Below, piece after piece: positions 1 to 39,400 of a stretch of 64,000 bases of DNA. The stretch comes from Raillietiella orientalis (lineage: Eukaryota), in contig JAYWIR010000016.1 in the NCBI GenBank assembly GCA_036172245.1, positions 2,046,001 to 2,110,000 of the forward strand, given 5' to 3'. Under the pieces are notes generated by a model. It was not told where the DNA came from and searched no databases. It saw nothing but the letters and a program-made list of their open reading frames with translations. The translations under genes were made by a program, and so were the position numbers. How positions within the stretch are numbered: the first letter of the stretch is position 1; the number at the start of each line of letters is the position of its first letter.

Positions 1-2261
1 TTCCTATAAGCAAAAAAAAAAAAAAAAAAAATGTGGGGCATTTGTTCGATTAAATACGGCAAAGTGACGTTTCTGAGAGATTTTCTCTGATTTGTGGATA
101 CCCCAAGCGGGGGAAGGCTATTTATAGATGCTCGCTAACAATGGCACACGGAAGAAGCTGTTGCCAGAGAGAGAGACGAGGCTATTTTTGGACACTCGGT
201 AACAATGGTCTGTAAACGTTCTCCGTGGACGGATGTCTCTCACACAAGGCTGAAGGGGTGTGCCCCGAGTAGGAAGGATGAGATCGTGCAGTTGGAGGAG
301 GCTGGTGTCTTCTGCGCCCTTGAATTCCGTGGAATTCCGTCAGGCAGGAATGCGAGAGAATGGGTCGCGTGCATGAGAAATCCATCCCCGCTCAGCCTTT
401 CAGAAGAATGTAATTTCATCCTCCGGGAGAGGGAGGAAAGGAAGGCAACGCGTTCCTCTGGCTAACCGTTCATCCCGACGCTCTCTTGATTTCACGCCGC
501 TCCTGGTAGGATGCTCCGCCACATTTCTCCAAAGGAAGCTCAAAGTTATTGCCCCTAGCTTTTCCCAGGACCAGCGGAGGCCTTCGGCGACATGTGGGAA
601 GGAAGGAGCTCGCTGGCCCCGCCGGGCAGACCTCCGCGATTCGCAGGTTCCTGCGGAGCCACACGTCTCCGGAAGGGTTCGCCAAGAGAATACGGGTGCC
701 TATCTCTGGCAACATGATGGAAGAGCCGAGGACTTGCAGAGAGCCTCAGTATGCCAGCGTGGGTCGCGAGTTCCTGGGAAAGAGAAGCCAAGGCAGCAAT
801 CGCTGCGGACGGGAAGAACTGGCGGGACATTCGAAGACGGCTCGGAACTTTCTCCCGGGAATGGAGGCTGCTCTCGAGGGAATTCGGCCGTCGAGAGAGA
901 AGTCCCTTTCGCGGTCCACGCATTCCCAGGGGCCGAGGGATCAGAGTTAAGGGAGGAAGGCGGTTGTCAGAGGGACGATGGTATGTACGGTCTGGCGTGG
1001 GGCAGAGAGGGAGAGGTGACCCATTGTGCGGCGAGTGTCGGAGGCCACGATGGAGTTCGTGCCCCATGCATGAGGAGGAGTGGAAAGGGGAAGGAAGAAC
1101 CGACGCCTCTCCCCAAGTCAGAGCTAAAAAGAAGTCCTCTGAACGGTCTCGAAGTCCTTCCGAGAACCAGAGATCCCATCTCATATCAGCGCCGCCAATG
1201 GGAGGGACACCGTCGGAGAAGGTTCTCAGGGAGAAAGAGCAGATGAATGCCAGAGGACTTCGTCTCCTCTCGTTCCTCTCTTGCACAGGGGAAGGAAGGT
1301 GGAAGGAGAGCAAAGTCAGGTGGACGGGAAAGGAAAATGAGAGGTCAGCATCTCTCGGAGAGAAAAAAGGGGGCAGGAATGGGGGAGGAAGAAAGAAGAG
1401 GGGACGGCTGCTATGCCAAGAACCGACCGGGAGAGCTGCTCCTCCCTCGAGAGAGACGAAAGGAGCGAAGAGACGTTCGTAGAACCGCATAGCGAGGCGT
1501 GCCTGCGACTCCATTCGTATGAGGGTATAGCAGGGAAAGGGGGGCGGGACATTCTGGATAAAAGACAGCGTAGAAGAGGGAACGCGAGCCAGCCAAATCC
1601 TTGTATCCGGCTCGCCAACCGGAAGACGCCATCAACCAGAAGTGAACCCCTCCTTTCCCTCTCCCGCAGCCCAGGATTCCGCAACTGTGAGAGCAGCTGA
1701 CTGGAAGGTTACCCCGAAACGTGAACTCCTTTTGCACTCACTGCTCCTGAGCAGTCCCGCAAGAACTCGACGAGGAATAACCACGCGGAGTGCCCCTGCC
1801 GCAGGAAACCTGAAAATTCGGTGATTCCCTTTCCTTTCCTCCGAAAGCTCGGTAGTGGCCAAGAACCCATGCCTTCCGCCGCCGCGCCAAGGGTTCTAGA
1901 CTCCTCTCCCTCCCGACGTCCTCTATGGCAGCTTCTGCGCTCCTCCTGCGCGTTCCCGAAAAGAGATTAAGACAAGAGAAGGGTGCGTTGCCCGAAGGAC
2001 GCAGCACCCATGTCCCGTGTGCAGCGATTCCTTGCTCTCCTCCTCTCCCTCTATCGCCATGGTTTCGGGTGGTGCGGATGCAGCGGAGTGCTTTCTGTTC
2101 CTTTCTCCTGTTATCTCCTGGTGTAGCCTCGCACGGAGCTGGTGCTTTTGGCGGACATGCCGCCCCATTCCCTTCATCTTCTGCTCGTTCTCTTTCTTAC
2201 CGAGGTGGAGAAGGACGACCTCTGCCTCCTACAAACACATCACCCTGATTCTCTTTTTAAG

Positions 2262-4981
2262 GAGCTTTGTGCTGCTTGAGCTGCCTGCTGTCCATGGCCT
2301 TTGCCCACGGAGCGGGCAACTACGTCTTCGTCCTCTTCGACGACTTCTGCGGCAACGTGCCTCTGCTCATCATCGCCCTCTTCGAGTGCATCACGGTCGC
2401 CTACGTCTACGGGATCAAGAGGTGAGGAGACGCAGCCCTCTCCCTTTTCCCTTCGTCTCCTATCACTCACACCTCGCTCCTTCTGGGACCGGTCGGTCTA
2501 TGCCCCGCGCATCCGTTGCTGCTGGGCGCAGTGAGGAGTACCGGTTTCGCCCTGGGCAGCTCGTCGATCCGAAGACGGAAAGCAAGGAAAGGAGGCGTTT
2601 GAGGGAGAGCGAATGGGAGCTTCAGAAAACACCTCACGATCTCCTCCCATTCCCAGGCGTAGGCCGACTCTCCCCAAAGTTCTTCCTTCTTCTCGGTGTC
2701 ACACTCGATCCACGCCTTCCTCGGAGTCCGTCTTCCTTTCCGTCCAAAACTCGACAGGCCACTTCCTTCCGGAGAGCCGTGTTGCTGGTGGATGGATGGA
2801 CGGACTCACTCACCTCAAGGGAGAATATGTCCTGGCCTTCTCTCTCCGGGAGGACTAGCTCTCCTTAGTTCTCTTAGCTGCCTCTCCCTCCACATTTCTT
2901 AGGACAGAAAGGGGAGGAGGGACAAAAAAGCAGTCGGCTCGGATGGCGCTGCGCTTCTGTGGGAAGGGCCTGAGCTCCAGGGAAAGCGTGGTGATGAGGA
3001 AGTGCGGGGCATCTCCGGGGACCTTCCTGCTTTCTCGGCGGCATTTCGTTCCTTCCTTCCCCCCCTTTCCCCGAGGCTTTCGCTCCCAGTGACCCTGCTC
3101 TCGTCCTCACCTACGCCGCGATGCTCCGAGGGTTCCGCGCAACGAGGTTCCTCTCTTTGACTCTCGTCTTGTCTCCATCTCGCAGGATCTCCGACGACAT
3201 CGAGCTGATGACGGGGAGGCGTCCGTCCATCTACTGGCTCCTCTGCTGGCGCTACATTTCGCCTCTGGCCATGCTCAGCATCCTCGTCGCCAGCATTGTG
3301 AAGATCGCCCTCAACGGTAGCGGCTACCTGGCCTGGGTCTCCAGCGAGGGGCGCACGGAGCGGCTGGAGTGGCCCACTTGGTCGCTGGCATTCATCGCCG
3401 TACTCATCCTCATGTCCACGCTCTGGATCCCTGGAATAGCCATTCTCAGGTATCGCCACGCCGAACGCCACCCGCCTGCAGGAGGAGGGAAGAGAGCGAA
3501 GGCTTGGGGAAGGGAAGGAGGAGCGGACGAGGGGGCGCGAGACCCGCTGCATCAACGTTCCCTGTTTTCCAGGAGCAGGGGAAAGGGAGTCACTCCTTAA
3601 AACGGGAATTGCTCCGCGGCGCAGCGAGCGCCAGACTCCATACGTGGGGAACCGGTTAGTCCGGAGTGTGGACCCGTTTCCCTCGACATCTCTCGACGTG
3701 GCAGGGAACAATCCGTGAGTCTCTCCTTCCTCTCGCTTCTAGGAGAGATCGTAGGGTGCGAAGGACAGCCGCGAGGTCCGGTGAGCGCTCCTCCTCGCGA
3801 GGAGGGCAAGCTGTTTGCGATAGGGCCACCCGCTGACGTCTCCGATGTTCCCCCTGGGGCAGCGCGGGAAGACGTTGAGGCGCGCGACCGCCGCATTTTC
3901 CGTTTGCTCCCGTCGCTCTACGCTTATCCTGCTCCCTTTTGATCTGGAAAACCCAGCGAAAGAAGGTGCGAAGGCTCCCCTTCGTTGTGCGACATCCCCA
4001 AACTGAATAGACCTTGCCTGTCGTAGATGCTGTTCCCTTTTGCCGGCAAGGATCGGGACCCACGGCCAAATCTTGCCATTGCAAACCCGCGCCCTTGGTG
4101 CCCCTAAGCTTTTCCCGCTCACCTTTTTTTGAACCAGAGGTCGAGAATAAGCAACCTGAGAATCCCGGGAATATTAAACAGGTGGCGCGTTCGAGTCACC
4201 ACCCGCGTGCTCCGAGGGAGCAACCTAAAGTTGGCGTGGAGCATGCCCCGGGACGACTCCGATCGCGTGCCTCATGCCCTCCCGGCTAATCCTGTCTCGC
4301 GTAACTCTGCTGCTCCCTAATGTCTCATCGGTTAGCGAGGTGGCACGAGAGCTACTGGTCAGTCACCATTCAAATTAATGAGACCAAGGAATGGACGTCG
4401 GCGAAGGGAAGGTAAGTGGGCAAGCGAAGCACCGAGAAAGAGACAATCTGAGTAGTCTGGAATCTCAAACAGGGGGAACCTTCAAGGTCACCTCCCGCGT
4501 ATTTCCTCGGGAGCCACTGGAAGATCGCGTGCCACGGGGTCTCCTTGCCAACTGGCTCGCGCACGCAAGGCTTAGATGCGGTTCTTGGACGGATGAACGG
4601 AATGGTGGAAGAGGCGTGCAAGGAGCGCCCGTGCAAAGGGGAGGAGAGAAAGGCGTCGGCTGCATGGCGCAACCCGAGTTGGGTCAAATGGGTCTTCTTT
4701 ACGCGCTCTTTACTTCACGTTGCGTGCCGCCGACCCTCCTGGTTCCTCGTTACAGATGGATGGGCATTTACACGTTCGACGAAGGAGAGCCTTCATGGTT
4801 TCCCATCGACGATCTCAAGGATTTCTGGAACGTTCAGGAACACATCCCGACACTGGTCGAGAAAGTCCTTCTCTGCATGGACGACGAAGGGAACGACGTC
4901 TGCTTCTCCTTCCTCAAAAAGAAACCCGACTCCGGGCGACAGCAGCGCTGCACACCGGAGAAAATCGTTTCTCTTTCTTGA
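2262..4981 (+). CDS. SLC6 (sodium:neurotransmitter symporter) family transporter, B0AT/SLC6A15-like, last three coding exons; 5' part not seen in this window
   Basis: Exons 2262-2421, 3186-3449 and 4756-4981 have GT-AG boundaries with consistent phase. They splice to ...AFAHGAGNYVFVLFDDFCGNVPLLIIALFECITVAYVYGIKR-ISDDIELMTGRRPSIYWLLCWRYISP...WPTWSLAFIAVLILMSTLWIPGIAILR-WMG..., matching the C-terminal transmembrane motifs of SLC6 transporters. TGA ends at 4981. Confidence 0.9.
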
Positions 4982-5357
4982 AGCCAGTGGGAAGAGGCGG
5001 CGGCAACAGCGGTGGTGGTGGTGGTGGTGATCGGAAGACGCCTGCAAGTGAGAGAGACCCCCCCCCGTCATGCGTTCTGTTCCGCGTCTCGTGACCCATT
5101 CCTCTGCCTGAGCAAGGAGAGGGGGAGGGAGAGAAACAACAGCAGCAACGACAGTGTCCAGAAAAACAGGGACCAGGAACTCACAGGGACAGCGCCTGCT
5201 CAGCAGCGGCGAAGTAGAATTCCCTAGCTTGCATGGAATCGCCGGAGACGTGCTGTCTCCGATGCGCTTGAGCAGCTCTCCCTCTAGCAATCGTCACCCA
5301 GCAGAGGACAAGGCTGCCGGGTGACTCTGCCTGTTGTTCACTACGTAGTGGGTGTCT

Positions 5358-5363
5358 AATAAA
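5358..5363 (+). promoter_or_regulatory. Candidate polyadenylation signal of the SLC6 gene
   Basis: AATAAA about 380 nt after the stop codon. Confidence 0.45.
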
Positions 5364-6199
5364 ACCTGTAACCTGTGCCACGGAGGGGAAGAATGCTGAC
5401 CTATCTCCACCAAACGCCCGCCTCGTACGCGCGGAACTCTTTCACAGATTCCCCTCCCTCTTGCACACACAGACACCACCCAACTGCAAGGGTTCGCCAC
5501 CGCGATCCAGGTCCTAGCCACTTGCTGCATTCACTTTCGCGTCCTGGGAATCCCAATCCCGGCGCTCCACGTTGAAGCTTCCCCCTCATGGCTTTGCGTT
5601 GTTAGTCCGCTCCCATCCCCACCCCAAACGGAATGGACCATCATCCTCCTCCCTTCCAAGAAGAAACGTCTCCGATCAGGCGGGCACGCGTGTAGATTAC
5701 CAGGGCAATCCGGGAGCAATTTCCACCCTTGTGAGGGAACGCCACTGAAGATTTGAGGAGGAAAAGGATGAGATTCGTGCTCCGCATCCCTTCGGAAAAT
5801 GTGAGCGTTCCGGAACCTTACCTCTTCGCGCAGCCTCCGCTCCTTTGCAGGAACCCGCTCCCCTCGGATCCCGCTGCCACGCAGCGGTTTGGGGGAAGCA
5901 GGCCTCGCACTGTGGTCGCTCGCGCCGCCCCCCGCGGAAACCTGCGTGCACAGAGACCGCAAGACTTCATTGGCTCCGCCGGCCACGAGTTTCGAAGGAC
6001 GCACACAACAGAAAACGAAGGAGACGCAGCCGATGCAAATCCAAAAGTCAGACAGGTGTCGCTCCCTCCCTTTTCCTCTGTTCTTCAGAGGTACACTCCC
6101 CCTGAGGGCTCCTGCCTCCACTCACTTCGTTTTCCCCCGTGGTTCGTCCGTCCGGTTGATTTTACGGAGGCTACAGAAGGATGTAACCATGGCAACCAA

Positions 6200-6900
6200 G
6201 GAAGAGGGTGTCTGCGAATTGGCTGATGAACCAGAGGCATCGAGGAGGGAGGAATGGGAGGAAACGAGGAGAAAACATACGAAAGACCTAATAAGGGCGA
6301 AGTTCAAACTGCAGACGCTCTGAGCATCCTCACGGAAGGAACATCACATCGATCGCAGGATGCATCGATTTCGGGAAAGGGGAAGGGAAGGGGGGAGGAT
6401 GAGAAGCATCCCGGGAGTTTGGGAGTGGTGCAGGGAGAGAGACAGGACGTTTCCGAAATTGGTTGCTGAATTCCTGGCGGGAAGTTCGTCCCGACAGGAA
6501 TCCGACAGGAAGTGTCACGTGATGGGGCTTGCGATGGCCCCCGTAACGTGTCAGCTTCCAGGGAAACGACGAGGTTGAGGACGCGGAAGACTCGCACCGA
6601 ATGCAAAAGAGAAAAAGCAAGCAAACAAATGGATGACAATTCTGCAGCAGGATCTGACAAGGGATGATCCACAAATCTCCTTCGAAGGCTCCGAGAAGAT
6701 GGCAATAAAGAAGATTTTGAGAGAGGAAGTCCGGGGAATCATCAAGCATCCCGCAAAGACCAGTTTCCCGGACTGCAGCCATCACTCGCATCCAGAAGAG
6801 CAGGGAGAATCCTTCAAGTGCTGTGGGCTCGTCTCGAGAGACGCAGAAACCCCGCACATCTCACGTGCGGGAGAAATCGAGTAGGCGGAAGCGACGGAGA
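6200..6900 (+). mobile_element. Heavily decayed non-LTR retrotransposon reverse transcriptase relic
   Basis: Across frameshifts, degenerate RT motifs occur in the expected order: DEK..GVW (D.EKAFD.VW), KLVAEFL, MGLAMAP (QGS.L.P), MDDNSA (YADD), IKHPAKT (IN..KT), FKCCGL...PHI (KYLG...HI). Confidence 0.35.
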
Positions 6901-7762
6901 TGGGTTCCTGAAGAATGGACCGGAAACCAAGGGAGGAAAACGGAAGAGCAGAACGAGGATTGAAACGGGAGCAGCTCGAGGGAGGATGGCGGAGAGCAAA
7001 TCATCCTGGAGCTGAACGCTCTCTGAATTTAAGCTTCCCTACCTTCCTTTACGAAAGCAGAATTGTCTTTGATAAGAAATAGTGGTAGAGATAGTGGTGG
7101 TCATTCTGGTTTTCACGTTTTGCGACGACCACGTCTGAACAGTCTTTGATGTTTTCAAATCCGGCTGTCCCTTTCTGAACGCCCGAGGAAACTCAACGAA
7201 GAGCACCCCGGATCGCGGAAGATGTAACTGGCGTCCCTCAGAGTCCAATTTTTCGGCCTCCATCCAACCGCGTCCAGAAGCGCTGCATCCTCGTTGCTCG
7301 CCGCGCAGCCACTGTGCGATGAAGTCCCGAGCTGCTTCCTGAGTGACCACCGGAATGCGTGCGGAGGCCCCCGCGTGGGTTCACAGCGCGCGCAGATGGA
7401 CAAAGGGAGCCGTCGGTTGAAATCAGCAACATCAAAGCGGGCTGTTGGAGGCGGCAGAACTGCGAACGGTTCGAGTCAGAGCAACCCATCCGGGCGCCAC
7501 GCAGGTGTCAGGGGAACGGTGAAGCTGCACGGAGGCGCCTTCCCTTCCCATCTGAGCGCGCCGACTTGAAGAGAACGCAGGTCCCCCACTCGTGCACACT
7601 CTGCCGACAACTCGAAGACGGTTGCGTTACTCAGCTCAATGTGTCAACCAGTGTCTGCAGGACTCATCCAGAATCACGATGACGCCAGCAGCGATTCGAC
7701 ACGGACAACTTACCAATAAAGGAATTTTCGAGAATTTTCCAGTTTTTCTGCTCATTTTCCAA

Positions 7763-8189
7763 GGCATCTTTCGCCGTGCACATCCTCACGCCCGTGCCTA
7801 TACCCCTGGAATATCCATCCTCAGGTACCGCCTCGCCAACTGCCACCCGCCTGCAGGAGGAGGGAAGAGAGCGAAGGCTTGGGGAAGGGAAGGAGAAGCG
7901 GGGTGAGGGGGCGCGAGACCCGCTGCGTCAACGTTCCCCGTTTTCCGGGAGCAGGGGAAAGGGAGTCACTCCTTAAAACGGGAACTGCTCCGCGGCGCAG
8001 CAAGGCGCCAGACTCCATACGTGGGGGAACCGGCTAGTCCGGAGTGTGGGTCCATTTCCCTCGACATCCCTCGACGTGGCAGGGAACAATCCGTGAGTCT
8101 CTCCTTCCTCTCACTTCCAGGAGACGTCGTAGGGCGCGAAAGACAGCCGCGAGGTCAGGTGAGCGCTCCTCCTCGCGAGAAGGCAAACT
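7763..8189 (+). repeat. Dispersed direct duplication of about 3387-3810 (3' end of an SLC6 exon, its splice donor and ~360 nt of intron)
   Basis: Long colinear match, e.g. ccacccgcctgcaggagg.gggaagagagcgaaggcttggg, agcaggggaaagggagtcactccttaaaacgggaa, tcgacgtggcagggaacaatccgtgagtctctccttcctctc and gtgagcgctcctcctcgcgag occur in both copies with scattered substitutions. Confidence 0.93.
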
Positions 8190-8634
8190 CTTTGTTTGGT
8201 GTCTACAAAAGTACTCCGAAAATGAGCTCATCCACATGGAACGTTGCTAGGGCGCCCGTTTCTGAAGCTACCTTCCATAACAACAACTCGTGGGCAATCG
8301 GGAGATTTCATATCTTCCGTGCCCCTCACCTCCTTCTGCCCCAAGGTTCCCAAGGTTCCTACCCTAATGAGAACGTGTTACGAACACACGTATCCGAAAA
8401 AGTGTTTTCGGGACATCGAATTCCCTCTTCGTGTACTCTGCTTCCCGTTAGCGCGATTCCTAAAACCAGAACTAGCGTGGTACATAGTACTGTACACAAT
8501 AAAGTAAAGCATAAGTAAACATGGAAGGAAAAGTGGCATTACTTAGTGTTTGAACTTTATTAGTAAGAAGAATCAAAGAGAAATCAAATCTTTTTTTTTT
8601 TTTTTTTCACAGGGAGAACGTTGCTACTGGCCTA

Positions 8635-9490
8635 GGATGCTGGCAATCCTTTGGGTTCCGCCGTTTCTGTTTTCTTCCCAGATGTTTTTTCTTCTTTGGG
8701 TTTTCTCTTTTTTGGTTCTCCAAATGCCGAAGAACCGCTCGCCCCCTTAGGGGGCTCCCAGAGCTCGTTAAGAACTGTCCACTTTACCCAAGGGCATGTG
8801 CAAATGTCCAAGTTAGGGGGAACCACCCTATGGATGCAGGAAGGGTCTGGAAGAAAGAGTCCATTCCTCTTATGCTTGGGAGAGGAACCCGAAGGGAATC
8901 CTCCATTCTTGGTTGTCTCGGAAGGGAACTCTGAAAGGAACCTCTTCCTTATTCTCTCCGGAGGCCACCCGGAGAGGATCCGCTCCTGGAACTTCTTATC
9001 CAAAAGGAACTCTCAAGGGAGCCGTCCCTTGTTAATCCTCTGAGGAGAAACCCGAAGGGACGCTTCCAGATTTCTTTGGGAAGGATGTTTCCCCGAAGGG
9101 AGCAGAGCGCTTCTTCCACTCTGAAGAGGTATCAACAAGCTCCATGGAACGCGGTGGAGGGTCCCCCGAGGAAGGAGAGGGTGGGGGACGGCTCCATTTG
9201 CACAACCGGAGGGGAATTCCGAAGGGAACCGGCTCCTTGATTCCCGGAAGCACCCCGGAGGGTCAACTCCAGTCCTGGCTAGTTAATGGGGGCATCTGGT
9301 TTCCGGCTGCTTCCACCAGTGCTGCACCCGAAGCTGTGGTTGGCGTACAGCCAACCAGAGTCATCCTGCGGGGGTGACTCAAAACCCACGACGCACCCAT
9401 TTCTAGGCATCGATTTTTCCCCTCCCGGTGGGATTCGAACCCTCAACACTTGGTACCACGCGCGGAGACCACAGTCACACGGTCGCCAAC
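8635..9490 (-). mobile_element. tRNA-headed SINE-like element with internal hairpin array, copy 1
   Basis: The minus strand has a perfect B box GGTTCGAATCCC (plus 9430-9441) in a tRNA-like head. The body holds ~40-nt modules GGA(A/G)...CCC-GNA-GGG...TCC and the minus-strand 3' end is A-rich. It is colinear with 19652-20683. Confidence 0.7.
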
Positions 9491-12400
9491 GAGGGCTGCG
9501 TGGGCGGCCCTGTGGCTACGGTCAAATCCCTTCATCGGTCAAATGAAGAGAAAACCCTTGCAGTGATGCCTTTCGGGAAGAGGGGAGAGTGAACCTTTGT
9601 TTCTGGAACACCAGTGCTCCCTATCCTTTTCATCTTTAGAACAAAAGTGCGAATCGATCTGGAAGCATATGAAGTCCACGGGTAGTCATAAAATTGCAAC
9701 AGCGTAGCATACGGATGCCGATCACACAGAATTCCCCAAAATTCCAATGACAAAGGAGCGGATCAAGTTTCAAGGTGATGGTATCCTTCAAGGATGGCGA
9801 GGGGACATTAAGCTGCGCAGGAATGACAGCAGCGCAACCTTCGTTAGAGGAATCGTGCGGATACGAAATTCGCCCGAAACCCAAGTCGAAGAGAACAGGG
9901 GCAAACGGAAATGCAATTTTTGTTAACAGCGGGGCAAGGTAAAAAAGGCCGCCGCCCTAAATGAAAACTTAACACGGACCCGTGATGAGGAGCCAGAAAA
10001 AGGCCGTGCTCTGAAACACGAAAACGACCCCCCCCCCCATCAAAAGAAAGGCAGATGTCGAAAAGGGTCGTTCCGACTGGATTGCTGAAAAGGAGAATGC
10101 GACTTGCTTTACGGTTGAAGCAACCTTCAGACCGAGAGGCCAAGCTGAAAAATTGAAACATTCAGGATGTAGCCGGAAGATTTGTGGGGAAAGCCTAACC
10201 GATTATGAGCAGCCAGTCAGATCCCAATAACGGGGAGGGCGTTTCGCCATGATGCCCATGAAATACACTCGTGGAAAACGCTCTGCCTATATTGTGAGGC
10301 ATAAATTTCGGCTTCAGTGTTGCTGAAACGGCGGAAAAATCAAGTGGAAAGCGTCTCAAGGGAATGGAAGTGAGCTGATGAGATGGGAGTTTGTTAAATG
10401 AATCACAGTTTCATTCCGCTGAGAACCTTTTGAAAAATTCGGTTTCTGAAAAAAAAAAAAAAAAAGCCCCATTGTGTCAATGTGATCAAGTTCAAATCAC
10501 TTCTGCTCGTAGGGAGAGGGTGGCGGGAGAGGGGGGGAACCTGACTGAAAGAAACGCACACACGGTCAAGGCGACGACGAACTTTCCGCGCCAGAAAATT
10601 TCGGTTCCCCAATCTCTTCCGAACGAAGACTCGAGAAAACGACCGAACAGCGGCGAGTCGCTGACAAATTCTCATCTGGAAATACCCATGAGATCCGAAA
10701 AGGCTCCACTGTGGGGATCCCGAAACGGAGGCAGGAGTGTTGAGCACAACTTGGCTCGTTCCAGTCTGGAAAACACTGCTTCGACCCCTTCGCTGAATTC
10801 CTCAGACGCTACACGGATCGCACTCAAAGTTAGAATGCCGACGTGGAAATTATTGATCTCTTAATGGCAATATTACGTTCCCTACAAGTTAAGAAATAAA
10901 AGCCGAAAGCACAGACGAAAGTTAAGGCTTCGGATTAAAGAAATGAAAAGTCTGTCCCACATTTCGAAACAAGCGAAAGGCACAGAAGACATGAAAGACA
11001 CACATCGACCGTTCACGACGCTTGCAAAACTTTGTCACAAGCTAGTAGTCTGCTATCATTTTAAGAATGCAAGCTAAGAAAGATCTGAAAGCAATCACAA
11101 GGCAACGCGGACGAGAGAGAGCGACGCGGCGAAGCCCCCTGAAGTACAAGAGCAGGAAGAGGGAAAAGAACCGAAGCATCAATGAAGTCGGAAAGATTGC
11201 TTTTTCGCATTCAGGGATCACGTGAGTCCACGGAGAAAACGGAGCCGCTCGATTTCACAAGGATGCTGGGAAGCTCGAAGCATCCATCTTTGGCCTTCTT
11301 ACCCGAGTGCCGGCACAGGGAAAGCGCTCCAGGGGTGGTGGGGTGGGAGCGACACCTAGCAACGGACTCGTTCAAGCACTCATTTCATCCCCGGGCATCT
11401 GCTCCGTGACAAAAAGAGCCGCTCCGAATCGCTCGTGAAGACGCAGCAGCATCCGACACGGTGCTGACCACGTGCCCGGAGTGGGCCTTCGTCATCAAGC
11501 GGTTGAGCTGAGGGTGATGATTACTTTGGTCACTTTTTAACGGACTTCGATGAGTCATGGCACGGCTGCGACTTTGAAGCGTATCTTTTGCACCCAACCC
11601 AAAATCGAAGAACTCTGACGAAAAAATCGCTTATTCTTTTTTCTATTCCTACTATTAAAAAAAAAAAAAAAAAAAAAAGGAGAGAGAAAAAACAGTTTTC
11701 TGCGGACATGCATTTTCAGTTAAAAGCTCGATTCCAGAGTGATAATTCGCGGCGTGGTCGCGTGATTTCTTTTTTTGATCGGAAAACTGCTGCCAGTCGC
11801 GAAACGATAATTTGCCGCTGGGGCCGAAAAGAAAAGCGCGCCGCTCCCGGAGAAAATGAAAGGGGGCACAGGGGTAGCCGTACGATTTTTCACGTTATCG
11901 ATTCCTCCGATAACCCGAAAGCCTATCGATTCAACCAGAAAAAAAAAAAGAAAAAAGAAAAAGGCGCGAGTCATAACCGATACAAATGGGTTTCCGGTAC
12001 GTTTCACCCTCCGGCGCGAAAATCCCGTGGCACTCAGAGACGGAGCAGAGCGATCATCACTCCTGGCAACCCCGCTCGGATGCTGACGGATGTGCAAACG
12101 CGGCAAAAGAACGAGGATTTGCGGGGACCCCCCCCCCCCCCTTTCCCGCTGACCGTCACGACTTCCATTTTCGGCGTGTCACTGCTGATCGCAGCAGCGG
12201 CGCTCCATCTGCTCTTCGTTTGAACGGAAAATTAAAACGAAACCGCTTCGCGACGGGCACGGTTTAAAAAACTCATCTCTGCTGGACGGGGGGGGTGGGG
12301 GAGAGAGAGTGCAGGATCATCCTCCTGCTGTGGAGAGAGCCACGCACACGAACCACCGAGCCTTTTTCCAGGCTTCGAACAGATTGCTTCAAAAGATGGC

Positions 12401-19500: not shown

Positions 19501-19651
19501 GGCTCAAGTGTCTTCTCATGAGACATTCATGCGTAATTTAGCGAGGAATCTGTAATATCCTGATATTGGATAGTGGTCAATAGGTAGTGATGCGTTGTTA
19601 CTGCCTATGAATTACATTTACCGGTTTTTTTAATGCATAAAATCCATCTAC

Positions 19652-20683
19652 GATGATGGTGGAAATCCTTGGGTTCTTCTTTTTCTTCTGCCTTCGCTGT
19701 TTATTCCTTCCAGCTTTTTTTTTTTTTTTTTTAAGAGTTTTCTTTTTTTTGGTTCGCTACGTAACCTCAAGAGCCGGTCGCGTGCCTCGCGCCGCACGTG
19801 GCTCTTTTTAAACATTAAACACACGGTTTTGTTTCCACGCCTCTCCGCCTGCGGCAACCCGCAGGGGGGCGTGTAATTCTTCAGCGTAATTCTTCAGGAT
19901 AAGGGACACCCCGGGATGAGGGTCCGCCCTATGAATCCAGGAAGAACTCGGAGTTCGCTCCTCTCACGCTTGGAGAGGGATCCCCCGGAGGGGAGGATCG
20001 CACCTCCCACCCTGGTTGTCTCCGAAGGGGAACCTCGAAGGGAATCTCCTTCCTCATTCCCTCCGGAGGGACACTCCCTGGGAAGGGGGTGGTCCTCTCC
20101 ATTTCAACTTCTCCGAAGGGAACCCGGAAAGGATCCACTAGTAGGAATTTCTTCTCCGGAGGGAGCCCTCAAGGGAACCGCTCCTGTTCACTCCTCTGAA
20201 GAGAACCCCGAAGGGACGCTTCCGAAACTCGGAAGGGGCGCTGCAGCTTCCCGCAGGGGGATCGCTCTCGCTTGCTTCCTTGCACTCTTCTGGAGAGGCG
20301 GCGACTCGGAGGGTCCCCCCGCAACAGAGGGGTCCGCTCCTTTAAACAACTGGAGAGGTCCCTGTGAAGACTCCTGCTCCATCTTAAACCGGAGGGGTCC
20401 CCACGGTGTGGGGGGTCCGCTCTCCGTCGCACGACCGGAGGGGGAACTCCCCACTCCTCGAATCCTGGAAGGACCCGAAGACTCCCGTCGTTCCGTTCTT
20501 CATCGTGGGCCTCCGGTTTGGACCGCTACCGGTGCCGCGCCCGAATGTTTGTAGGCCAACCAGCGCCATCTTGCAGGAGGAACTCGGAGCCCGAAGAAGC
20601 AGTGGCGTCGGTCTCTGCCGGAGTATTCGAACCCGCGACGCATGGTACCACGCGCGGAAGCCTTAACCACAATCCATCTACCA
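19652..20683 (-). mobile_element. tRNA-headed SINE-like element with internal hairpin array, copy 2
   Basis: The minus-strand head GTGGTTAAGGC..TCCGCGCGTGGTACCA..GGGTTCGAATAC shares TCCGCGCGTGGTACCA and the B box with copy 1, and the hairpin modules are the same type. An 11-bp direct repeat AATCCATCTAC sits at 19641-19651 and 20671-20681. Confidence 0.7.
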
Positions 20684-21734
20684 TCCTGGGAAAATGCTTT
20701 AGTCGATCTACAAATGCTCGATTCAGTTCCTTTTTAGAAAGTTCGAATAACGCTACCGCTCATTTAGGTTAGCTATCTTGTCCAAATGTGCAACAAATCG
20801 GAATGTAGTAGCTCATGGTATTAAAAATGTGTTTCCAGATGCCTTTAAAAACCTCCTGCGACTGACACGAAGATGTCGATGGCGCCGGAAGTAAAGCACC
20901 CATGAGAAACATGTCAAGACACAGAAACCACTGAACGGTCAGACTTCTGAAGTCTCGGTCCGCAGCCGGGCGCCCAAGTCAACACTTGCTTTCGAACACC
21001 GCCAACGGCCACACGCAAGGAATGTGTTGGTGTACAAACACGAGCAAGGAGCACACGATCGGCGCCTACCTGTTGGTTTGAAATTCGCACTTTCGGAGGA
21101 TTCATGGCACAAACAGAATGCAAAGTGGGATGCCACGCGTGTGTGTGTTTTATTCGACTTTTACGATGATGCATACCTTATCCCACGGGACACCGGAGCG
21201 AGGGAACTTCTTGCAAGGCAAACCAAATGAAGAACGCCTGCACATCTGGAAAGCACCGTGGTCTCCTGCGGCATCTGCTAATAAGGCAGTTTTGGATGAA
21301 TGTGCTTTTACGACGACGATACCCTTGTAGAGTTCAAGGGAATTGAGGCTGCTATTCGTAGCCGCGGCACGTACCAAATGCAAACAGTAGTGATGCCAAA
21401 GGCTGATCGAAACAATCACTTTTTTTTTTTTAACGATAAAACAGACAAAACCACAGACTGTATAGAAATGACAAAGGAAAATTTATTACACTATCTTTCC
21501 TTTTGTGTAAAATTAGTGTCTACAAGAAAAATAAATATAAATTTTTTTTTTTTTTTTTTGCCAATTTTCCTGTTTCGAAATTTCCGTAGCTGTGGAAACG
21601 ACGTGGTTTTAGCCTTATTGAATCGCGCCTGCTCACTTCCTGGTGATGATCCGGCTGACCCGCGTCTCTCGAAATTTTTTCGGATGCATGAGATCTGGAT
21701 CCAAAGATCCCCAGAACATGACACAGAGAACTGC

Positions 21735-24700: not shown

Positions 24701-27700
24701 GCTCCCTCTATCCTAACAGTTTTGACCACGTTCGCTCCAAGAAATGAACTGTTAATCCCCGAGTTCTTCATTTCCTCAAGCCAATCGGAACACACACCGG
24801 AAACGGAAAACCAATTTTCTAGTTTTCCATTTTTCTTGCATACACTTTCGAATTTCGTTCTTCCAAGTTTTTGATGAGCTTAAAGAAATTCTTCTTTGGA
24901 GAACACATCACTCAGTGCCTCGAATACGCCGCGAGATGACCACCTTTGTAGAACGTACGTCGGGTCTCCCACGCAGAAGGGGCTGGGCTGGTGACTGTGG
25001 CTGTTTCCAATGTATGAGTGCTTCCGAAACAGTTGGGGCAGGTCACGACACACATTATGCACCGTTGATAAACGAACGAGCTTTATGAAATGCAATTCAA
25101 CACTTCTCTAACGAAAACGGTTTTTCCTCCAAACAACATTTTCAGTTTCCTGCTTGATGAAGGGGCGAGAACTTGACAAGCACGAAAACTGTGAAGTACG
25201 AGGACCTGCTGGAAAACTCCAGAGAAGGCTACTTGACGACCTCCGCGGTCTTACAAGCACGAAGAACTTTACAGCCTTCAACAACCAGCTAATGCTCAAA
25301 AGTTAACCGACTTAGTATACAAGAAAAACAGTCTTAAGTTTGCAGGTTAAGACGGTTTTTCTTGCATGATGATTTGGAATTTACATTGAAAATTTTTCTG
25401 ACTATATTAGGAATGCAAGAACTTTTACTGAAAGGCACATTTTTTTTTCTTAAAGAAAACTGAAGTATTTGGATAGAATCTCCTAAAAACTAAATAAATC
25501 CATGTGATCACTATCAGTTGGTATGACACATTCTCATAGCATTCTCATTTAACACTTCCAAGACTCGAACCTCTTCCCAACGATAAAAAAACCATTCATA
25601 GTTTTCCCCTATAGTACTCCTGTTCATTCCTTATGGAATGTTTAGTTTTCAAGTTTTCCCTTCTACACTGCCCATTGCATCTCATCAGTTGTACACTAAT
25701 AATTAATTTACCTTACTACCAACATTGATAAATCATGGAAAGAAAGCTGCTGAAGGTTAGTTTCAACAAATCAGATAATACTTAAGTCTCATCAGTACAA
25801 CTGATTATTTTACAAAAACCGTGCATTCACTTTAGCCTACTGACTAGATGAAAACACATGCTGTATATATATCTTTTTTTCATGGATCAATAAAAAGTGG
25901 TTTGGAAAAGTGAGATAAGGATGGGGATGAGGTACTAGGAAGTATGCAAGTAAGGCATGCATTCATTCTGTTCCTATTTCTGAATGAAGAAAAACATCAA
26001 TGGAATGTTTGCAACAGCTTAATTTTTTTAAATATTTTCCATATAACGCCAAAAATGTGTAACTGAGAATAATAATAATATTTATCTAAGTTACATAAGA
26101 TGAATGTAAATACACTGAGTTATGATCTCAAGACTTGGAGAAAACAACAATAATATGACACCCAACACAACTTCCTCATACTTAGTCCTTAGTCATCTTT
26201 CATGCTCCTTGTTAGATTTAGATCACTAAATAAAGGCAAGTTCATTTTAATTCCTCGATTCTAGATAAACAGAAATGAATGGAAGGAACAGAAATGTACA
26301 GAAACAGTATAAGATTACAATTTTATTCAGGGCAATACAACAAAATATTGAATCAACAGCTATAAATAGACTTCATACTGATTAATTAAATGCATGTGCA
26401 AAGTGAAGTGCCTCAACCTCACTACATAAATTTGATGTGAAAATCACTTACCCAATGAATTCGTCAGCATTATGTACTTTATTTACTAAAACTCAAACAG
26501 TAAAATCAAATGTTTCCAAATAGAAAGCTTATGCAGAAATTCTTTAAAAGGAAATTTTGGTAGTTTTTTTTTATTTATAATTTAACCAATACCAAATTTT
26601 CTTCATATTGGATACAAATCCATGAGCTGTTTAAGTTATTAAAAATGAAATATTAAAAAAACAGTATTTGTACACTTGATTTTCAATTCACTAATGCATG
26701 TTCAATGAAAACAGAAATCACAATTTTGTATGATCACATTTAACTTACAAAGAACACACAAACCATTAACCTACAACAAAAAATACTAACTGTTTAAATA
26801 ACTCAACATATTCCCAAGCATCAATAAAAAAATGCATATGTTATCAATATACTAACCAGTAATCTCATCTTCATGCCATCCTCCACAAACATATAATTTG
26901 CTACCAAAGGTAAGCATTGCATGATCTGCTCTAGCAGCTGGAAGGGAACATTTTTTGTCCCATTTGTCAGTCACTGTATTATATGACAACATGGTGTCCA
27001 AAACTGAGTCTCTGTCTAATCCACCAGATATAAAAATATAATGCTGCCATGTGCATGCTGCATGCTGAGTTCGAAATCCTGGCAATGATGCAACAAATGT
27101 CCAAGAATCCGCTATAGGATCGTATTTTTCACATGAAGATTCACCACCCAAATGTTCCTCATCAGATAAACTCTCACTGGCTCCACCAATGGCATAAAGA
27201 TTTGAGCTAACCATGCTTAGAGTGAAACGGCAGCGTTCTTTTTGCATTGGTGCCATTGTGTTCCATTTGTTAAACTGTGGATTATAACTAAATCCAAATG
27301 GATGTATATTTTCTTGAAGGGATTGGTTAAAACAGCCACCCACAACGTACAATTCATTATTTAAAACAGCAGTCCCATAATTACACTGTTCCACATGAGG
27401 GATACTTGTAAGGTATTTCCAGCAACCACAACTTGAATGATAATAAGTTATTTGATTGGTAACTCCATTTATTCCGAAACCTCCAATTTTAACTAATGCC
27501 AATTCCATTCCTCTAGAATTAATTAAACCTGAATTGTCTGTAGAATATTTATTGCTTTCAGCAAATGCTTTACAATAAAGTGATGGGCATAGCAACATGA
27601 TAGTTCTGAACAGTTTGGAAACCATAAAAGTTCTAAGATATGAATGAGAAATTTGATGGAAGCGGATGTTTTTGAGGATATCATTTGCATAGGAAGATCT

Positions 27701-28456
27701 ACGGCTATCATGTTCCATCCACCTGATAACTGTTGCAAGTATTTCAGCTTCTGAACAGTTCACAGGATAATCACATTCCAACAAATATTCTAACTGTGCT
27801 AATGACAGCTGATTTAACTCAACTGAATGAGAGAATTGCATAAAATTATCACAGATAAACTGGTAAACACGTTTTATTAAATGAGTTAATGAGTAAGTTT
27901 CTGCAATTGTTAAGACATCAACACAGTTTTCGAGATCCAATTGCGTCTAGTAGAATATGCAAATTAACATTTCCTCAAAGTTCATTTCAACATACCTGTA
28001 AATATGCTGCACATGCCTCAACAACTGAAAAGACTTGTACATGGCTCGCAGCTGAAAGAACATCTTGGATATTTTCTACATTAAGTGTCAAAGTAGAAGT
28101 GTATGCATATTCCAACAAATACTTCATTCCCTTTGCAGTTACACCATTAAGATAAATTTCCTTCTGTTGACTTTCTTTCATCTCATCTGTAAACATGGCA
28201 CGAAAATATTCACTACATGAAGCCAGAACAACTTTATGCGCCTAGAAAATTCGATAGGCAAATGACATTAAACACCATTTTTGACGTTCATCATCCTCAC
28301 CTCAAAAGTGATGCCATCTACTATTAAACTTACATCTAGGAGCAATTTTTTTTTCCTAAGCGTATTCAATCCATTCAAAAGGGTAGTGGTGTGATTTGTG
28401 GACTCGAACACGATGGTATTTAGTAGTTTTTCGCATATCTTTCGCTGTTTCGTCAT
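21735..28456 (-). CDS. Kelch-like BTB-BACK-Kelch protein (KLHL26/KLHL9-like Cullin-3 adaptor)
   Basis: Exons 28456-28301, 28241-27996, 27946-26857, 22099-21929 and 21883-21735 are GT-AG with matching phases. The protein has a BTB (LLDV...AHKVVLASCSEYFRAMFT), a BACK domain (ENCVDVLTIAETYSL) and six Kelch repeats with GG/Y/W signatures. A minus-strand AATAAA lies at 21482-21487. Confidence 0.93.
23100..24960 (-). mobile_element. Decayed LINE (APE endonuclease + RT) relic inside the 4.76-kb Kelch intron
   Basis: Ordered degenerate motifs: LQRWSSRG (QWN.RG), SDWLEE (ETWL), VAGD, AIFRKKD...NCRG (PIFKKGD..NYRG), FLIDFEA (FIDF.KAFD), ILY..DN (LYADD). There are many stops and frameshifts. Confidence 0.45.
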
Positions 28457-33413: not shown

Positions 33414-36400
33414 TTATTCAATAAATGTTTTAGTCTTTACACTAAAAAATTCTTCATTCACAGAATAAGTCAGATGACAATGCAAGTGGAAAGATTCCTA
33501 AAATACAAGATTATATAAATAAAAGATTGTAAAAGAATACTTCAGATGACATAAAGAAGGAAGCATACAAAACCTTGTGTGGATTTTCAATTAACAATAT
33601 TTGATTTACAGTTGGTGGTGGTAAAAATGGAGAAAATGCAGGTAGTTCTTTCAATGGAGCTTTGATTAATTTGGCTTTTAAAGGCTAAAATGATCTATCA
33701 TGTAGACAATCGAAAAATGTTTCTATTAAAGAGCTTACCTTTGGGACTGTAAAGTCAAGCATATATTGCGTTAAAGGTGACTTCACTTGATTTGTTGTTG
33801 AAACAACATATACAACAAAATTTTCTTCCAATTTATTTTCAGTGAAATGTAATGTGACACAGATTTCTTTTCTACATATAAGTATCAATGGTTTTTTATT
33901 TCCTTAATAATCATTTTCAAATATACTACATGGATTTGCAGAAACAGAGTTTACCTTACCTGCTTGAAGCATGTCAAAACTGGAAGAAAGCTTGTCAATA
34001 TCACTAAACACACCTCCATTACTGATATTTGTGTCATTGAAAGGCCATTTAAAATACTTTTCTATCATAGATTTTTCTACTTCTGGTTTTCTAAACACCT
34101 GCTCTAGGTCTTGATTCTCTTCATATTTACAATCAACAGGTTTATCCAACCTAGAGAAAAGATTACCAATTTGTGTAGTTTCATTACAATTTCCTGAATT
34201 CATTTTATAAATGAATTCAAGAAATTATGGCAAAATGGCCTGGAAAACTTCCCCAAAATATAATGTTTCAAATGCAAGTAATGAGGTTCCAGCTTCCAAT
34301 CCCTAAGAAACTTTAAAAATGCTTCCATTCACATAAAAATTCAGGTTTTCCTATTTGTCAGAAAAAGCAGAATGCTTTGAACTGATCGAAATATTGTAAA
34401 ATTTTTAAACATTTCGATCAATTTTTAACATTCGATCAATAGAGTTTTTTGACCAAAATTCCACTTGCTGAATGGAATAAAATACATTAAGGAAAATAGA
34501 AGAGAAAGTCTTACCACAAACTAACAGTTACAAACTATGTAGCACAGTGATATCATTCTGCAAATAAGGTGAAGCAAGCAACAATATCTGGAGGCAGCAG
34601 GTCACAAAAAATCAATGTTTTTTCATATGCACGTTGGAAGGTAAATAGGCAACTGTCTTATATTTTCGTCAAGAAATGTATTCTTGGAAAGTGCAAGCAG
34701 TAAAAGTTACAATGACTATGAGAAAACAATATACAACGATTAAGAGAAAATTAAATGCACATCACACTGAGTAGAAAGATTACATCATTCCTAGGTCTTG
34801 AAACAACTAATTTTTATCCAAGCCATCCAGTACTATCCTTTAACCAGATGCCAAAAAAAAAAGAATCGCAAAACATGCTTTTATTCCCATAAATCAAGAT
34901 TTCAACAGACATTGTTGATTGTAGTAAAATATTAGACTAAAGCAGGACTGTAAAATATAGATTAATTTATGAAAACTCACAAATGCATCTCTGTCTTGAT
35001 AGGCAAACACTGTGGCTTTACTTCCTCACTAAGTTCATCAAGGTCTAAAAGGTCTTTTGAGCTGGATTCTCTTGATGATTTGGAATGTTTTGTAATGTTT
35101 CTATTTTTATGTAAAGAATTGTCACATTCAACAGCAGAGTTTTGGGGGGAGTAAAAAATCACATGTTCATTATTGATTGATGATTCAATGTTAGTGCCAC
35201 ATGTTTCATTTAATGTTAGCAAATCACAGTCTTCATTTATTAATACTTTTTTGGAAACATCTGAAACATTTACCCACCTGTTTTATTACCATACATATCA
35301 TCAGCACAGATTTCACAGATTCATGTAATCTTTAGATTAAATTAATCCAAATACAATCAAAAAATTAAGAGACCAGGCAAATTCATGTAACTTTTCTTTC
35401 AGAAATGAGCTTGTGATAATTTGCAAAGTTATAAGAATTGCACTATAATCTGGTTAAATTCCAATGGAAAAATCAATATACATCCGACTTAAATATAATA
35501 AATCCCTTATGAAATCAAACCAACAAGGAAACCTTATGAATTTCCAAACTAAAAGTTGAACATGCAACTCATGGTTGTGAAAATGAAAAAGGAAAAGCTC
35601 AATTACTCACTAGCACTTGATTGAATGAATGGAAATGATGAAAACAAAAAGAAAAATTAGTTCCTTATGCACAAACATGTTGATTTTCATAGTAGCATTA
35701 AAGAATTTACAAATAGGAACAAACAACTGTTTAATTCTTTTAAAAAACCTGAAAGTTCTCAAGAACATAAGATCTAAACAACACGATGTGATCATAAAAT
35801 TTACTTAACATTCAAATGTACATTATGATTATATGATATTAGAGCTTTACAACTGAGACTTAAATCACATGTGCCCCATGTAATCATAATTCTTTAGGTG
35901 AAAATTAAAATGAAGCACGATCATTACGATAAAGGAATTCTGTGTATATATAATAGTTCTGCAATCTACCTATTCACAGATCGGAGAAAAAGTCTGTACT
36001 GCTATTAAAAATGTGATTTGGAAAATTTCATGAATGAGAATGAGAACTTTGTAATATTTGAAATGAAAGTTGCTTAGATAAGAAAGTAAAGAAATGAAAT
36101 CTACATTTACCAGGATTTGTTTGAATATTGGACAGCTGATCACCTGCACCATAAGGATCAAATGCTATATCCAGCAAAGGTAAATCCGATTTTATTAATG
36201 ATGTGCATCTCTCATCTATTTTTTTGTATTTGCACAAAACTGATTCCAACTGATCACTTTTCAGGAGTATACATTCTGAAAATTGAAAACGGATAGAGAT
36301 TATCACTTTTTTCATCTAGGAAACCTAATTCTTCAAAATTTTTGTCATCAACTTCCGATGCTAATTGTGAAAGAAGGTCTCTAAATTCTAGGCAAGAATC

Positions 36401-39400
36401 ATGTAACTCTCGCATTAGTTCTATCTCTTCTTTTGTGGTCATTTCCGAGAAATTTGTTATCATTTCATCCAAAACCACGATGCTATTTTGTATATTGTCA
36501 ATTTTGGCACTTCTTCTTGAAGCCTTCTCCATCTTCTGCTCATCCTGAATTTTTAAGAAATTGTAATTATCAACTGATCTGGCGAGTGTTAATTTGAAAA
36601 TAACATGATTTCGTTTTGAAAATGAAAGGCTTTCATATTTTAGGCCTCGAAATGAAATAAATGGAAGCTTTAATAATTAATGTATTTCAAGGATATGTTC
36701 TTTCAATTTTACCTACTGTAACTTTGGTATATGCAAATAGATGGGTTAGGGAAGGGGGCAATTTTGCTCCGATGTATAAATTCAAGAAAAGTGAAATCAA
36801 TAGTATGAAGCAAAGTAGTATGAAGATAGACTAAACACAAAAGTAATCTAACTAACTAATCGAAGAAACTTTCAAGAAACTTAATAAACTTCAAAGAAAC
36901 TTATTAAAAGAAACTTTTTGCTGAAAAGATGGGTTCCTTGCAAATGATCAATTAATAAGCTACATGAATAGTGAACCTACAATATTTTGAAATATGCAAA
37001 TTATTCATTCAATATTTATGTTCATTAAGATATTTCACTGCTTCTTATGCAGTTCTGCATAAAATGTTTTTTACAGCTGAGCTTTCAAAGTGTCTACATA
37101 GATGAGAAATCCAAAGTTTACTCGCAAATACATTTAAAAAGTAACCATTTTAATGTACAGGCATAATTCTTTGAAACAAAATGAAAAGATTCACTAAGTT
37201 CTATGAACCAGAAGAAAACACACCATACATTTGCTAGCCTACCTCAACTGATTCGAAGTACAAGCTTCAGATCAATTGGGGTATGGGAGAATGGAAAGCA
37301 CAAAAAAATGCACAAAACTTTCAGGCCACGGGAAACAGTGTTCACAAAGACTTAGTTTCCAGTGAAATCAATCAAATATAAAATACGGAGGGCAGTTTCA
37401 CTGATCACCACTCAAAACTAAACTTTACTGATTTTTAAGTGACTTTTTAAGAAGAAAGTGCAAAAACTCAAAATACTCCACCAAGACTACTAATAATTTT
37501 GGGAACGTGAATGGAGCTTTAACCAAAAGTTAACCTTTGGTTAAGAACAAAAGATTCTGACATGGAAGCATGAAGGAATAAAAAGAAATCCAAAATAGAA
37601 ATTATGGCTAAACTGAATCTGTTGCACAAATCAATTATTGACCACCAAAGGTATTAATTAAATTGCTAATGTATTCAAATGTTACTCCAGAATGCTACAC
37701 AAGCAAGAGAAGCTTTAAATATGAACACAAAAACACCAAATAGGTAGTGAATAGAAAACTGAAATGATGGAACAATGTACTGTGAATGGGAAAATATGAA
37801 TATGAAATGCTGGATTCTGCAAATTCGAAAACAAGTATTTGAAATAACGTGAAAGATATGAAAACAAACAATGGATACTTGCTATTTGCAAGATGAAAAC
37901 AAAAATGATGCATCAACAGCTAAGAAAGAATTATTTAAGAAAAATGTAATCAATGAGTCTCAGACCAGGAATGTAAAGTTAATCTAAGCATGCATCAGGG
38001 TTTTTGACTTTACTCATTCGAGAGAATCAGATATAAGATCCCATAACACTTCTTGAACCACTATGATAATGAGATAAAAACTCAGAGAGAAAAAGTAAGA
38101 GTCCAAAAACAGGTACCTGAAACATATGGTCAAGCACAGGAAAAAAAGAAGCAAAGGATGTATTACAAAGAATTGTGAAGCTTGAACTATCAGTAGCAAC
38201 ATCAAATAAAGAGGATATGCAACCTCCATGAAAACAGACATGATGAAATTGGTACTTCAAAATGTATAAATACGAAATAGCATTCAGCTCATATATTACT
38301 TCATTATTCTTCAAATTTGACTAAAATACAATGGCATGCACATGTCACTAATGCCATGTTCAATTTTGCTGGAGTACTACACCATTACTTAGAATGACAA
38401 AAGATATAGATAATAGAAAATGTTTGGTGGCTGAACAAAAATTTATGCACTAAGTTCAAGATTCAATATCATGCACATGCACGACAAATAAATATTAATT
38501 TCAAATTGGTGCATTTCAGAGTAAACCAAAATAAAAGTACACAAAAAAGTTCATTACCCTGTAGACGTCAAAAGCACTCATGATCAACACTTCTGAGGAT
38601 AAAGCAATGAAATTACAACCATTAAAGTCTATGTAAGTCTGCAAAACTAACAACTGATGATTTAAATTCACTGTTTTATCCTCAGAATTTCAGTGTTTTC
38701 CAACTTTACATGGATATAACAATACAAAATAGATTACAGGTTTGACATTCTATAGGTTCCATGAAAGATAAACTGCTGACCAAAAATATATTTATGCAGA
38801 CCAAAATCTCTTATTATATGACAAACTATAATAAAAATAATATTTAAACATACTTCACATAAATCAAGTCATTAAGTCAACAAGTTTTTTATTTTAATTT
38901 TTTTTCCAAATACCAACCAACAGATATTTATTCAATGCAGTATGAATTATTATAACTTTCAACAAGATCAACAATTAAATTTACTCAGCCAATTGTTCAT
39001 CGTCAAAATAGGAACTGTTGATAAATACAGAAAGAGTTTTCCAACAAGAATAATATCCTATATTGAATAGTGAAAACTGGAAACAAAAACAGCAGGAACT
39101 GAAATCATGAAGCAGAAAAGAAAAGTGCTGGAAGTTAACATTGATCTGAATTTGAAATACTAATCAGAGAAACATCAACTAATTGAAATGAGTCAGAATA
39201 GATCCTGATACCATCCATGTAATTTGTACTCAAAACTCAAGAGGACAACATATCATTCCTCTAAAGAACTAAATGCATAGGATACTGCAGTATACAATGA
39301 AAAACTATAAACTATCAAAAGAAATTAGTGGGCTGAAATAACACATTTAAATTTATTTTAATTTCTGCCGATAATGCACTTTTTATCGATGCAGTTTCTT

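Follow-up and report, generated by a model that had tools for sequence, protein, structure and literature searches.

RNA that primes its own reverse transcription has figured among the suggested routes of retroposition since the early 1980s. Such self-priming is documented in vitro and in the cytosol, but has rarely been seen in genomes. Truncated genomic copies have since mostly been ascribed to target priming.

In the available extracts of the papers cited here, a junction between the base of a hairpin and an inverted terminus is the in vitro signature of self-priming, for which U3 pseudogenes are cited as the natural case (PMC4027162); self-priming of the U3 type is also treated in PMC1687206. 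The extracts further report that RNA hairpins, a uridylated Alu hairpin among them, are extended by L1 ORF2p (PMC10830420), and they discuss Alu self-priming for cytosolic cDNA (PMC11485995, PMC3820591). Copies truncated at the 3′ end are usually explained by internal target priming, which leaves duplications (PMC4476161, PMC5322556).

Here we describe a family of structured retroelements, two copies of which lie in a stretch of 64,000 nucleotides from Raillietiella orientalis (contig JAYWIR010000016.1; hereafter, the window). We consider it likely that the family is a tRNA(Arg)-derived SINE that is copied both by target priming and by self-priming from a Pol III terminal hairpin.

The family has several features in common with SINE2 elements, which are tRNA-derived, poly(A)-tailed and mobilised by L1-like LINEs, namely a tRNA head, a B box, no notable coding frame, thousands of dispersed copies, subfamilies, poly(A), an A-rich target, duplications and 5′ truncation. 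It differs from them in its length of 0.8–1.1 kb, compared to the cut-off of ca 500 nt cited in the available part of PMC5322556, in its body, which is an array of hairpin modules, in its terminator, which is internal and follows a terminal hairpin, and in a large class of copies that end at this hairpin without duplication.

A second comparison is with U3 pseudogenes (Bernstein 1983), BC1 (Shen 1997) and Alu cDNA (Fukuda 2021), in which a 3′ stem-loop or U-tract serves as primer for the reverse transcription of its own RNA, so that the copies end at the stem base. Unlike in those cases, as far as the accessible text of these sources describes them, self-priming would here have shaped much of a SINE family, and genomic junctions still carry the primer arm in inverted orientation; for BC1 and Alu, self-priming is described there as an in vitro or cytosolic process, and not from copies that have integrated. 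Like tailless retropseudogenes and SINEs, many copies are 5′-complete and 3′-truncated at preferred points beside a structure. However, most of the copies that end at the hairpin base (called base-ended below) lack duplications, unlike the tailless retropseudogenes in the sections of PMC4476161 and PMC5322556 at hand, which have duplications and are ascribed to target priming. Finally, one LINE lineage has a fixed site in a repeat, as Tx1-clade LINEs do (Tx1 in Tx1D, Keno in U2), but the fixed target here is a SINE, whereas the available text of PMC4494074 lists DNA transposons, snRNA, 5S and satellites. The literature extracts at hand contain no description of the present family or of inverted 3′-end junctions in a SINE, and supplements of genome papers may list the family.

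The length of the SINE and its array are unusual, and the fossil self-priming junctions are the stronger result. With hundreds of copies that break off at a defined point and are short of duplications, and with junctions that appear still to hold the RNA primer, the family makes self-priming a question that genomics and a simple RT assay can test. The family also extends SINE anatomy to more than 1 kb of modular structure.

The Family and the Two Window Copies

The family is a dispersed tRNA-headed SINE of 0.8–1.1 kb, in which three subfamilies can be told apart that differ in age. In the 210-Mb genome (491 contigs), a 27-mer taken from copy 2 matches at least 2,623 times when up to 3 mismatches are allowed (control 0), which places the copy number in the thousands, where the preliminary description had spoken of two copies. 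A metagenome scan with the SINE 27-mer gave 0 matches. The best matches to copy 1, which is of the old subfamily, are 68–75% identical; the corresponding values are 74–79% for the mid subfamily with its own query and 82–89% for the young one, to which copy 2 belongs. Each consensus was built from 30 of 40 scored loci. The three consensuses are 74–82% identical to each other and share the same starting base, and whole modules have been gained or lost between them.

The coordinates of the window features are collected in Table 1. The two segments had been described as colinear but clearly diverged, and they do align end to end, copy 1 going with the old consensus and copy 2 with the young one. 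Their limits had to be corrected, as copy 1 had been ended at 8635, which misses the terminal hairpin, and copy 2 had been placed at 19652–20683. Copy 2 has neither the first ca 17 nt nor poly(A), and it ends where the terminal hairpin would begin. A 98% identical relative lies 23 kb away, just outside the window (L082 and L083, at 2065640 and 2042431 of the contig). Its flanks differ and its 5′ start is intact; the two may go back to a local conversion or to a common source.

Table 1. Positions of the SINE features in the window.
Feature	Position	Strand	Basis
SINE copy 1, old subfamily, nearly full length	8608..9496	−	85% to old consensus over 832 nt; ends read
Putative tRNA-derived head of copy 1, B box 9431–9441	9425..9496	−	tRNA-Arg(CCT) best for young and old heads; folds
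Second conserved hairpin of copy 1 (consensus 140–186)	9295..9345	−	fixed insertion site of poly(A)-less LINE in other copies
Stem-loop module array of copy 1	8812..9290	−	folding and module scan
Internal A-rich tract of copy 1	8660..8720	−	internal priming site in other copies
Terminal hairpin 5′ arm and loop of copy 1 (8608–8636), then 17 A (8591–8607)	8591..8636	−	ends read
Inverted copy of first ca 30 nt of head, adjoining 5′ end of copy 1	9495..9523	+	3/132 heads flagged
SINE copy 2, young subfamily	19655..20670	−	92% to young consensus
Module array of copy 2	19895..20500	−	10 modules, shuffle mean 1.2
Target-site duplication of copy 2, left	19641..19654	.	13/14 identical to 20671–20684
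Target-site duplication of copy 2, right	20671..20684	.	13/14 identical to 19641–19654

The tRNA-like head noted earlier could be recognised in both copies by a 16-nt head motif and a B box (20623–20633 in copy 2). When the heads were compared with 62 host tRNA loci, tRNA-Arg(CCT) was found to be the best match, scoring 27 for the young and 25.5 for the old head, with a shuffled maximum of 22; the score of the mid head lies inside the shuffle range. The head is thus probably derived from tRNA(Arg). An origin from tRNA-His was also considered, but it was rejected, being outside the top seven for every head. All three consensuses have a B box, while the regular expression for the A box matched the mid one alone; the D-loop region aligns to tRNA-Arg. 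In all three, the first 42–45 nt are predicted to fold into one rod-like hairpin. The sense strand of the consensuses has no run of four T, compared to 2–8 such runs on the antisense strand, a pattern that would fit Pol III read-through, if weakly when taken alone. ARAGORN found no tRNA gene in the window, and Rfam gave no match in either copy. Only short stop-to-stop frames of 126–225 amino acids are present over the two copies, and they differ between the copies; the SINE is non-coding.

Full-length copies end with the hairpin followed by 2–5 T and then poly(A), and they have target duplications of 10–19 bp that mostly start with A. There are also 5′-truncated copies, and one copy (L151) has an inverted 5′ end. 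Because poly(A), an A-rich target, duplications and 5′ truncation or inversion are hallmarks of L1-type mobilisation, the SINE was presumably moved by a LINE of that type. The earlier suggestion of a structured non-autonomous retroelement agrees with these features. Nothing in the analysis indicates a host function of the two window copies. The inverted stretch that adjoins the 5′ end of copy 1 does not fold above shuffles, and a 5′-end fold-back as a general feature was rejected in view of the few heads flagged.

The Module Array

The modules had previously been given on the non-transcribed strand. In the RNA sense, each consists of a purine outer arm (often GGAG), a 5′ bulge, a GG/CC element, a small internal loop and a hairpin of a C-run and a G-run that is frequently closed by a UUCG-type loop. 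In a mechanical scan, copy 1 has 6 modules, copy 2 has 10 and every one of the three consensuses has 9, compared with 1.05–1.4 (ca 1.3) in dinucleotide shuffles (maximum 5; 40 shuffles each) and a background of 0.3–0.5 per kb in the window. By eye, the young consensus has ca 14 units. The array is thus real, and all five of the inner stems quoted in the preliminary description were located in the sequence. It is, however, not a regular tandem repeat, since TRF detected no array with a period of ca 40 nt in copy 1 or copy 2. The array probably grew by duplication of a ca 40-nt unit and was kept folded in the source genes.

The local folding of the consensuses is better than that of shuffles, with z values of −3.9 to −7.0. 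On the minus strand, z is −5.1 for copy 2 but −1.3 for copy 1, so that of the two window copies copy 2 alone folds better than shuffles; the intact terminal hairpin has a value of about −3.4 (L229, L231). The lengths of the C-run and the G-run agree within modules, and in folding energy the modules show no preference for the sense strand (9 of 18).

It is important to distinguish between the genomic copies and the source genes when selection on this structure is considered. In 40 young copies, rare changes (present in 1–2 copies) affect 2.5% of paired, 2.4% of loop and 2.0% of linker positions, and 95 of 294 changed pairs stay paired. The genomic copies are thus dead copies that decay neutrally. 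When all changes in the young copies are counted, including shared ones, paired sites change at 4.5% vs 6.6%, and 27 of 50 pairs are kept for changes common to at least three copies. Between the consensuses, paired sites change at 0.07–0.15 and unpaired ones at 0.18–0.30 in 6/6 comparisons, which are not independent, and five double compensations are found in each of two comparisons, some of them via double transversion. Pair-keeping was also assessed by an early Fisher test, in which 16/26 and 16/25 kept pairs were set against the 95/294 (p 0.004 and 0.002). This signal weakened under a spectrum-matched null, from which columns within 2 nt of gaps were dropped (p 0.05, 0.30, 0.04, 0.19, 0.92 and 0.44), and the null was taken as the fairer test. 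The idea of selection on structure in the preliminary description can be kept, with moderate support, for folding in the source genes, but not for the genomic copies. The covariation among modules that had been expected is weak against this null and absent in a test of 10 copies over two modules, in which 94% are paired, yet 139–152 of 500 shuffles are equally high.

The pairing could instead stem from the origin of the array and from C/G slippage, the array being a neutral palindromic minisatellite that rides on the SINE. This would agree with pair-keeping changes that are not clearly above the null, with the missing covariation signal and with the neutral decay of the copies. It would leave unexplained why source-gene paired sites change two to three times slower, which is not so for rare changes in dead copies, and it sits poorly with the double compensations and the matched run lengths. 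We regard such a neutral array as possible, though doubtful. Alternatively, the copies could be retropseudogenes of a functional non-coding RNA gene of the host, in the way that ID elements derive from BC1. The length and ordered structure, unusual for a SINE, and the conservation of stems at the source level would be in line with this, but the subfamilies differ by 18–26% and whole modules are gained and lost, as in selfish source genes, and Rfam gave no match in the window. We judge a host gene as the source to be quite improbable.

CCHC knuckles of the LINE ORF1 type bind GGAG. Such knuckles are present in the ORF1 of the local LINEs, and the consensuses hold 12–19 GGAG each. On these grounds one may guess, rather speculatively, that the hairpins and the GGAG-rich linkers serve to load the RNA into LINE particles and to keep it compact without long double-stranded stems.

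Two Classes of 3′ Ends

We now consider the 3′ end, which had been overlooked in the preliminary description. Among the first 30 listed of the 102 copies with an exact young tail, 19 retain both the hairpin and the poly(A), while 10 break off no more than 4 nt from the hairpin base and one does so inside the arm. Genome-wide, 73 of the 408 copies with the preceding 15-mer run exactly into the hairpin, a gap for which decay accounts in part. The upstream breakpoint of the base-ended copies is sharp, within ca 8 nt. All 11 mid copies are base-ended, compared to 9 of 27 young ones.

The two classes differ in their duplications. With a threshold of at least 10 matches, and for copies with intact heads, duplications are found in 14/18 of those that keep the hairpin but in only 2/20 of the base-ended ones; among these 20, L219 retains a decayed part of the arm. 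The mismatched-flank controls gave 19/306 and 1/380, respectively. For young copies alone, the numbers are 12/16 and 1/9 (p 0.004). A few other copies terminate in the internal A-rich tract, with duplications (L090, L099, L101, L109).

One possibility is that the base-ended copies are ordinary tailless retrocopies, for which the target DNA primes on a single-stranded stretch beside the hairpin. Such a route is known for snRNA and tRNA copies according to the available portions of PMC4476161 and PMC5322556, and three base-ended copies do have duplications and junction homology (copy 2, L222 and L198), which means that ordinary internal priming makes some of them. Internal target priming does not, however, fit most base-ended copies. 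The same portions of these papers report duplications in 70–100% of cases or require them, far from the 2/20 found here, and target priming offers no way for the 3′ terminus of the RNA itself to end up inverted at the junction. As the general explanation this route is very unlikely, and it is refuted as the sole route if the deficit of duplications holds over all 408 copies.

Inverted junctions of exactly this kind are present in the genome. A pattern in which the hairpin base is joined to the inverted RNA 3′ terminus has 11 exact matches genome-wide (control 0). Seven of these follow the inverted arm for 13–26 nt, vs 9 for the templated arm, while the other four are too short to be told from the templated arm. 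Locus L238 has ca 30 nt of the inverted arm with the loop, and L228 has an inverted upstream piece at the junction. At L260 a whole fold-back is found, with the sense element, the hairpin, two T and ca 150 nt of inverted upstream sequence up to an interrupting LINE. The joints consist of 2–4 A or T and never of a poly(A) tract, as expected if the primer was a Pol III-terminated RNA. Inverted remnants are found in a small share only of the base-ended copies, and several inverted junctions show TA microhomology.

The fold-backs can hardly be chimeras of amplification or assembly, and this reading was rejected on two grounds: separate loci repeatedly have their junction at the RNA end, and the arms of L260 are diverged, one of them being interrupted by a LINE. 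We have also considered normal insertion followed by a deletion or fold-back repair at the DNA level that removed the hairpin, the poly(A) and the 3′ duplication. This would be compatible with the TA microhomology and with L260, whose sense hairpin and inverted arm could also arise by DNA fold-back, and it is a possibility because older copies are more often base-ended. Resection should, however, scatter the breakpoints, and the upstream one is sharp. Furthermore, a break would be needed just past 2–4 T and before the poly(A) in every case seen, and in most cases a complete copied arm goes with a short primer arm, the opposite of a genomic fold-back. Loss at the DNA level is unlikely for these reasons, if slightly less so than tailless retrocopying.

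Two further candidates for the fixed 3′ end were rejected. A ribozyme cleavage would leave the inverted remnants unexplained, and no core was found: Rfam gave no match to a hammerhead, HDV-like or other ribozyme up to E 1 in the window, in which the terminal hairpin is incomplete, and a check of the consensus by eye showed no known core. A later LINE insertion does not account for base-ended copies in general, as their flanks are mostly unrelated sequences. The exception is L086, a base-ended copy whose 5′ and 3′ flanks are inverted copies of the same LINE stretch.

Proposed Mechanism

In the mechanism that we favour, Pol III, whose involvement is suggested by the B box, would produce an RNA of 0.8–1.1 kb. 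This RNA would comprise, in order, the rod-like head hairpin, ca 9–14 short bulged hairpins, the A-rich tract and the terminal hairpin ending in 2–5 U. The reverse transcriptase of a LINE would copy it by two routes. In the first one, which is directly reflected in the 10–19-bp duplications, polyadenylated or internally primed RNA would undergo target-primed reverse transcription at A-rich sites. In the second one, the 3′ arm of non-adenylated RNA, which ends in U, would pair back with the 5′ arm and self-prime cDNA synthesis at the hairpin base. The resulting RNA-cDNA fold-back would be captured in the genome, presumably at breaks and mostly without duplication, and the primer arm would be lost or kept as the short inverted remnant seen at the junctions, the order of these steps being our assumption.

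A more far-reaching version would make self-primed, endonuclease-independent capture the main route of the older subfamilies and the source of about one third of the tail-reaching young copies, with the array as a selected multivalent scaffold for LINE particles and with a LINE lineage that targets the SINE. We put forward this combination tentatively and doubt that it holds in full.

LINEs around the SINE

Homology to the SINE tail was not found in the LINEs of 30 RT loci with 1.5-kb flanks (out of 150 scored RT matches from 3,358 candidates) or in 14 longer LINE-array stretches. A different relation is seen for a LINE that lacks poly(A) and has a terminal hairpin, which is inserted in antisense at one fixed site in the second hairpin of the SINE. 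At L047 and L049, antisense LINE ends of ca 0.5 and 1 kb lie at the same SINE site with duplications of ca 9 bp, and L101 is a third such insertion, giving 3 of 10 LINE ends (L109 was dropped as SINE sequence). The pattern of the poly(A)-less LINE end has 502 matches genome-wide. By eye, 21 of the first 100 listed LINE ends adjoin the fixed SINE site, or 19 if three near-identical rows are counted as one. This suggests that a SINE can become a preferred LINE target. Two LINE ends were found in tandem, 557 bp apart, and other tail variants of the poly(A)-less LINE seem to prefer other targets.

At several loci (L142–L148, L153, L154, L157, L158), LINEs form tandem arrays ca 5.5 kb apart that are separated by RNA-like fragments, which we take to resemble U4 snRNA, U1 snRNA, 28S rRNA and one other RNA. 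An APE-RT ORF2 was confirmed in L142 and L144. On the basis of its domain order and behaviour, the LINE would belong to Tx1. Four young SINE copies (L062, L087, L094, L096) lie at the same site of another repeat with differing duplication lengths; this repeat resembles the 3′ part of the SINE-targeting LINE.

Other Features of the Window

A direct repeat of ca 430 bp, 89% identical, is present at 3387–3817 and 7763–8194 and was not found in the other fetched loci. Broken frames at 54018–54831 resemble the C-terminal end of a non-LTR retrotransposon; they have no Pfam hit, and similar DNA is found in L248. The window also contains exons of host genes, namely kelch-like 26 (26852–27946, −), an SLC6 transporter (2998–3600, +), an AKAP7-like gene (55272–55742, −) and a GAT-domain protein (36254–36676, −), and the best matches of the kelch exon are in arthropods, at 55–57% identity. 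The GC content changes in sharp steps, from ca 55% at 1–12000 to 30% at 13000–53000 and 47% at 54000–64000; the two SINE copies are within the GC-richer part or close to it.
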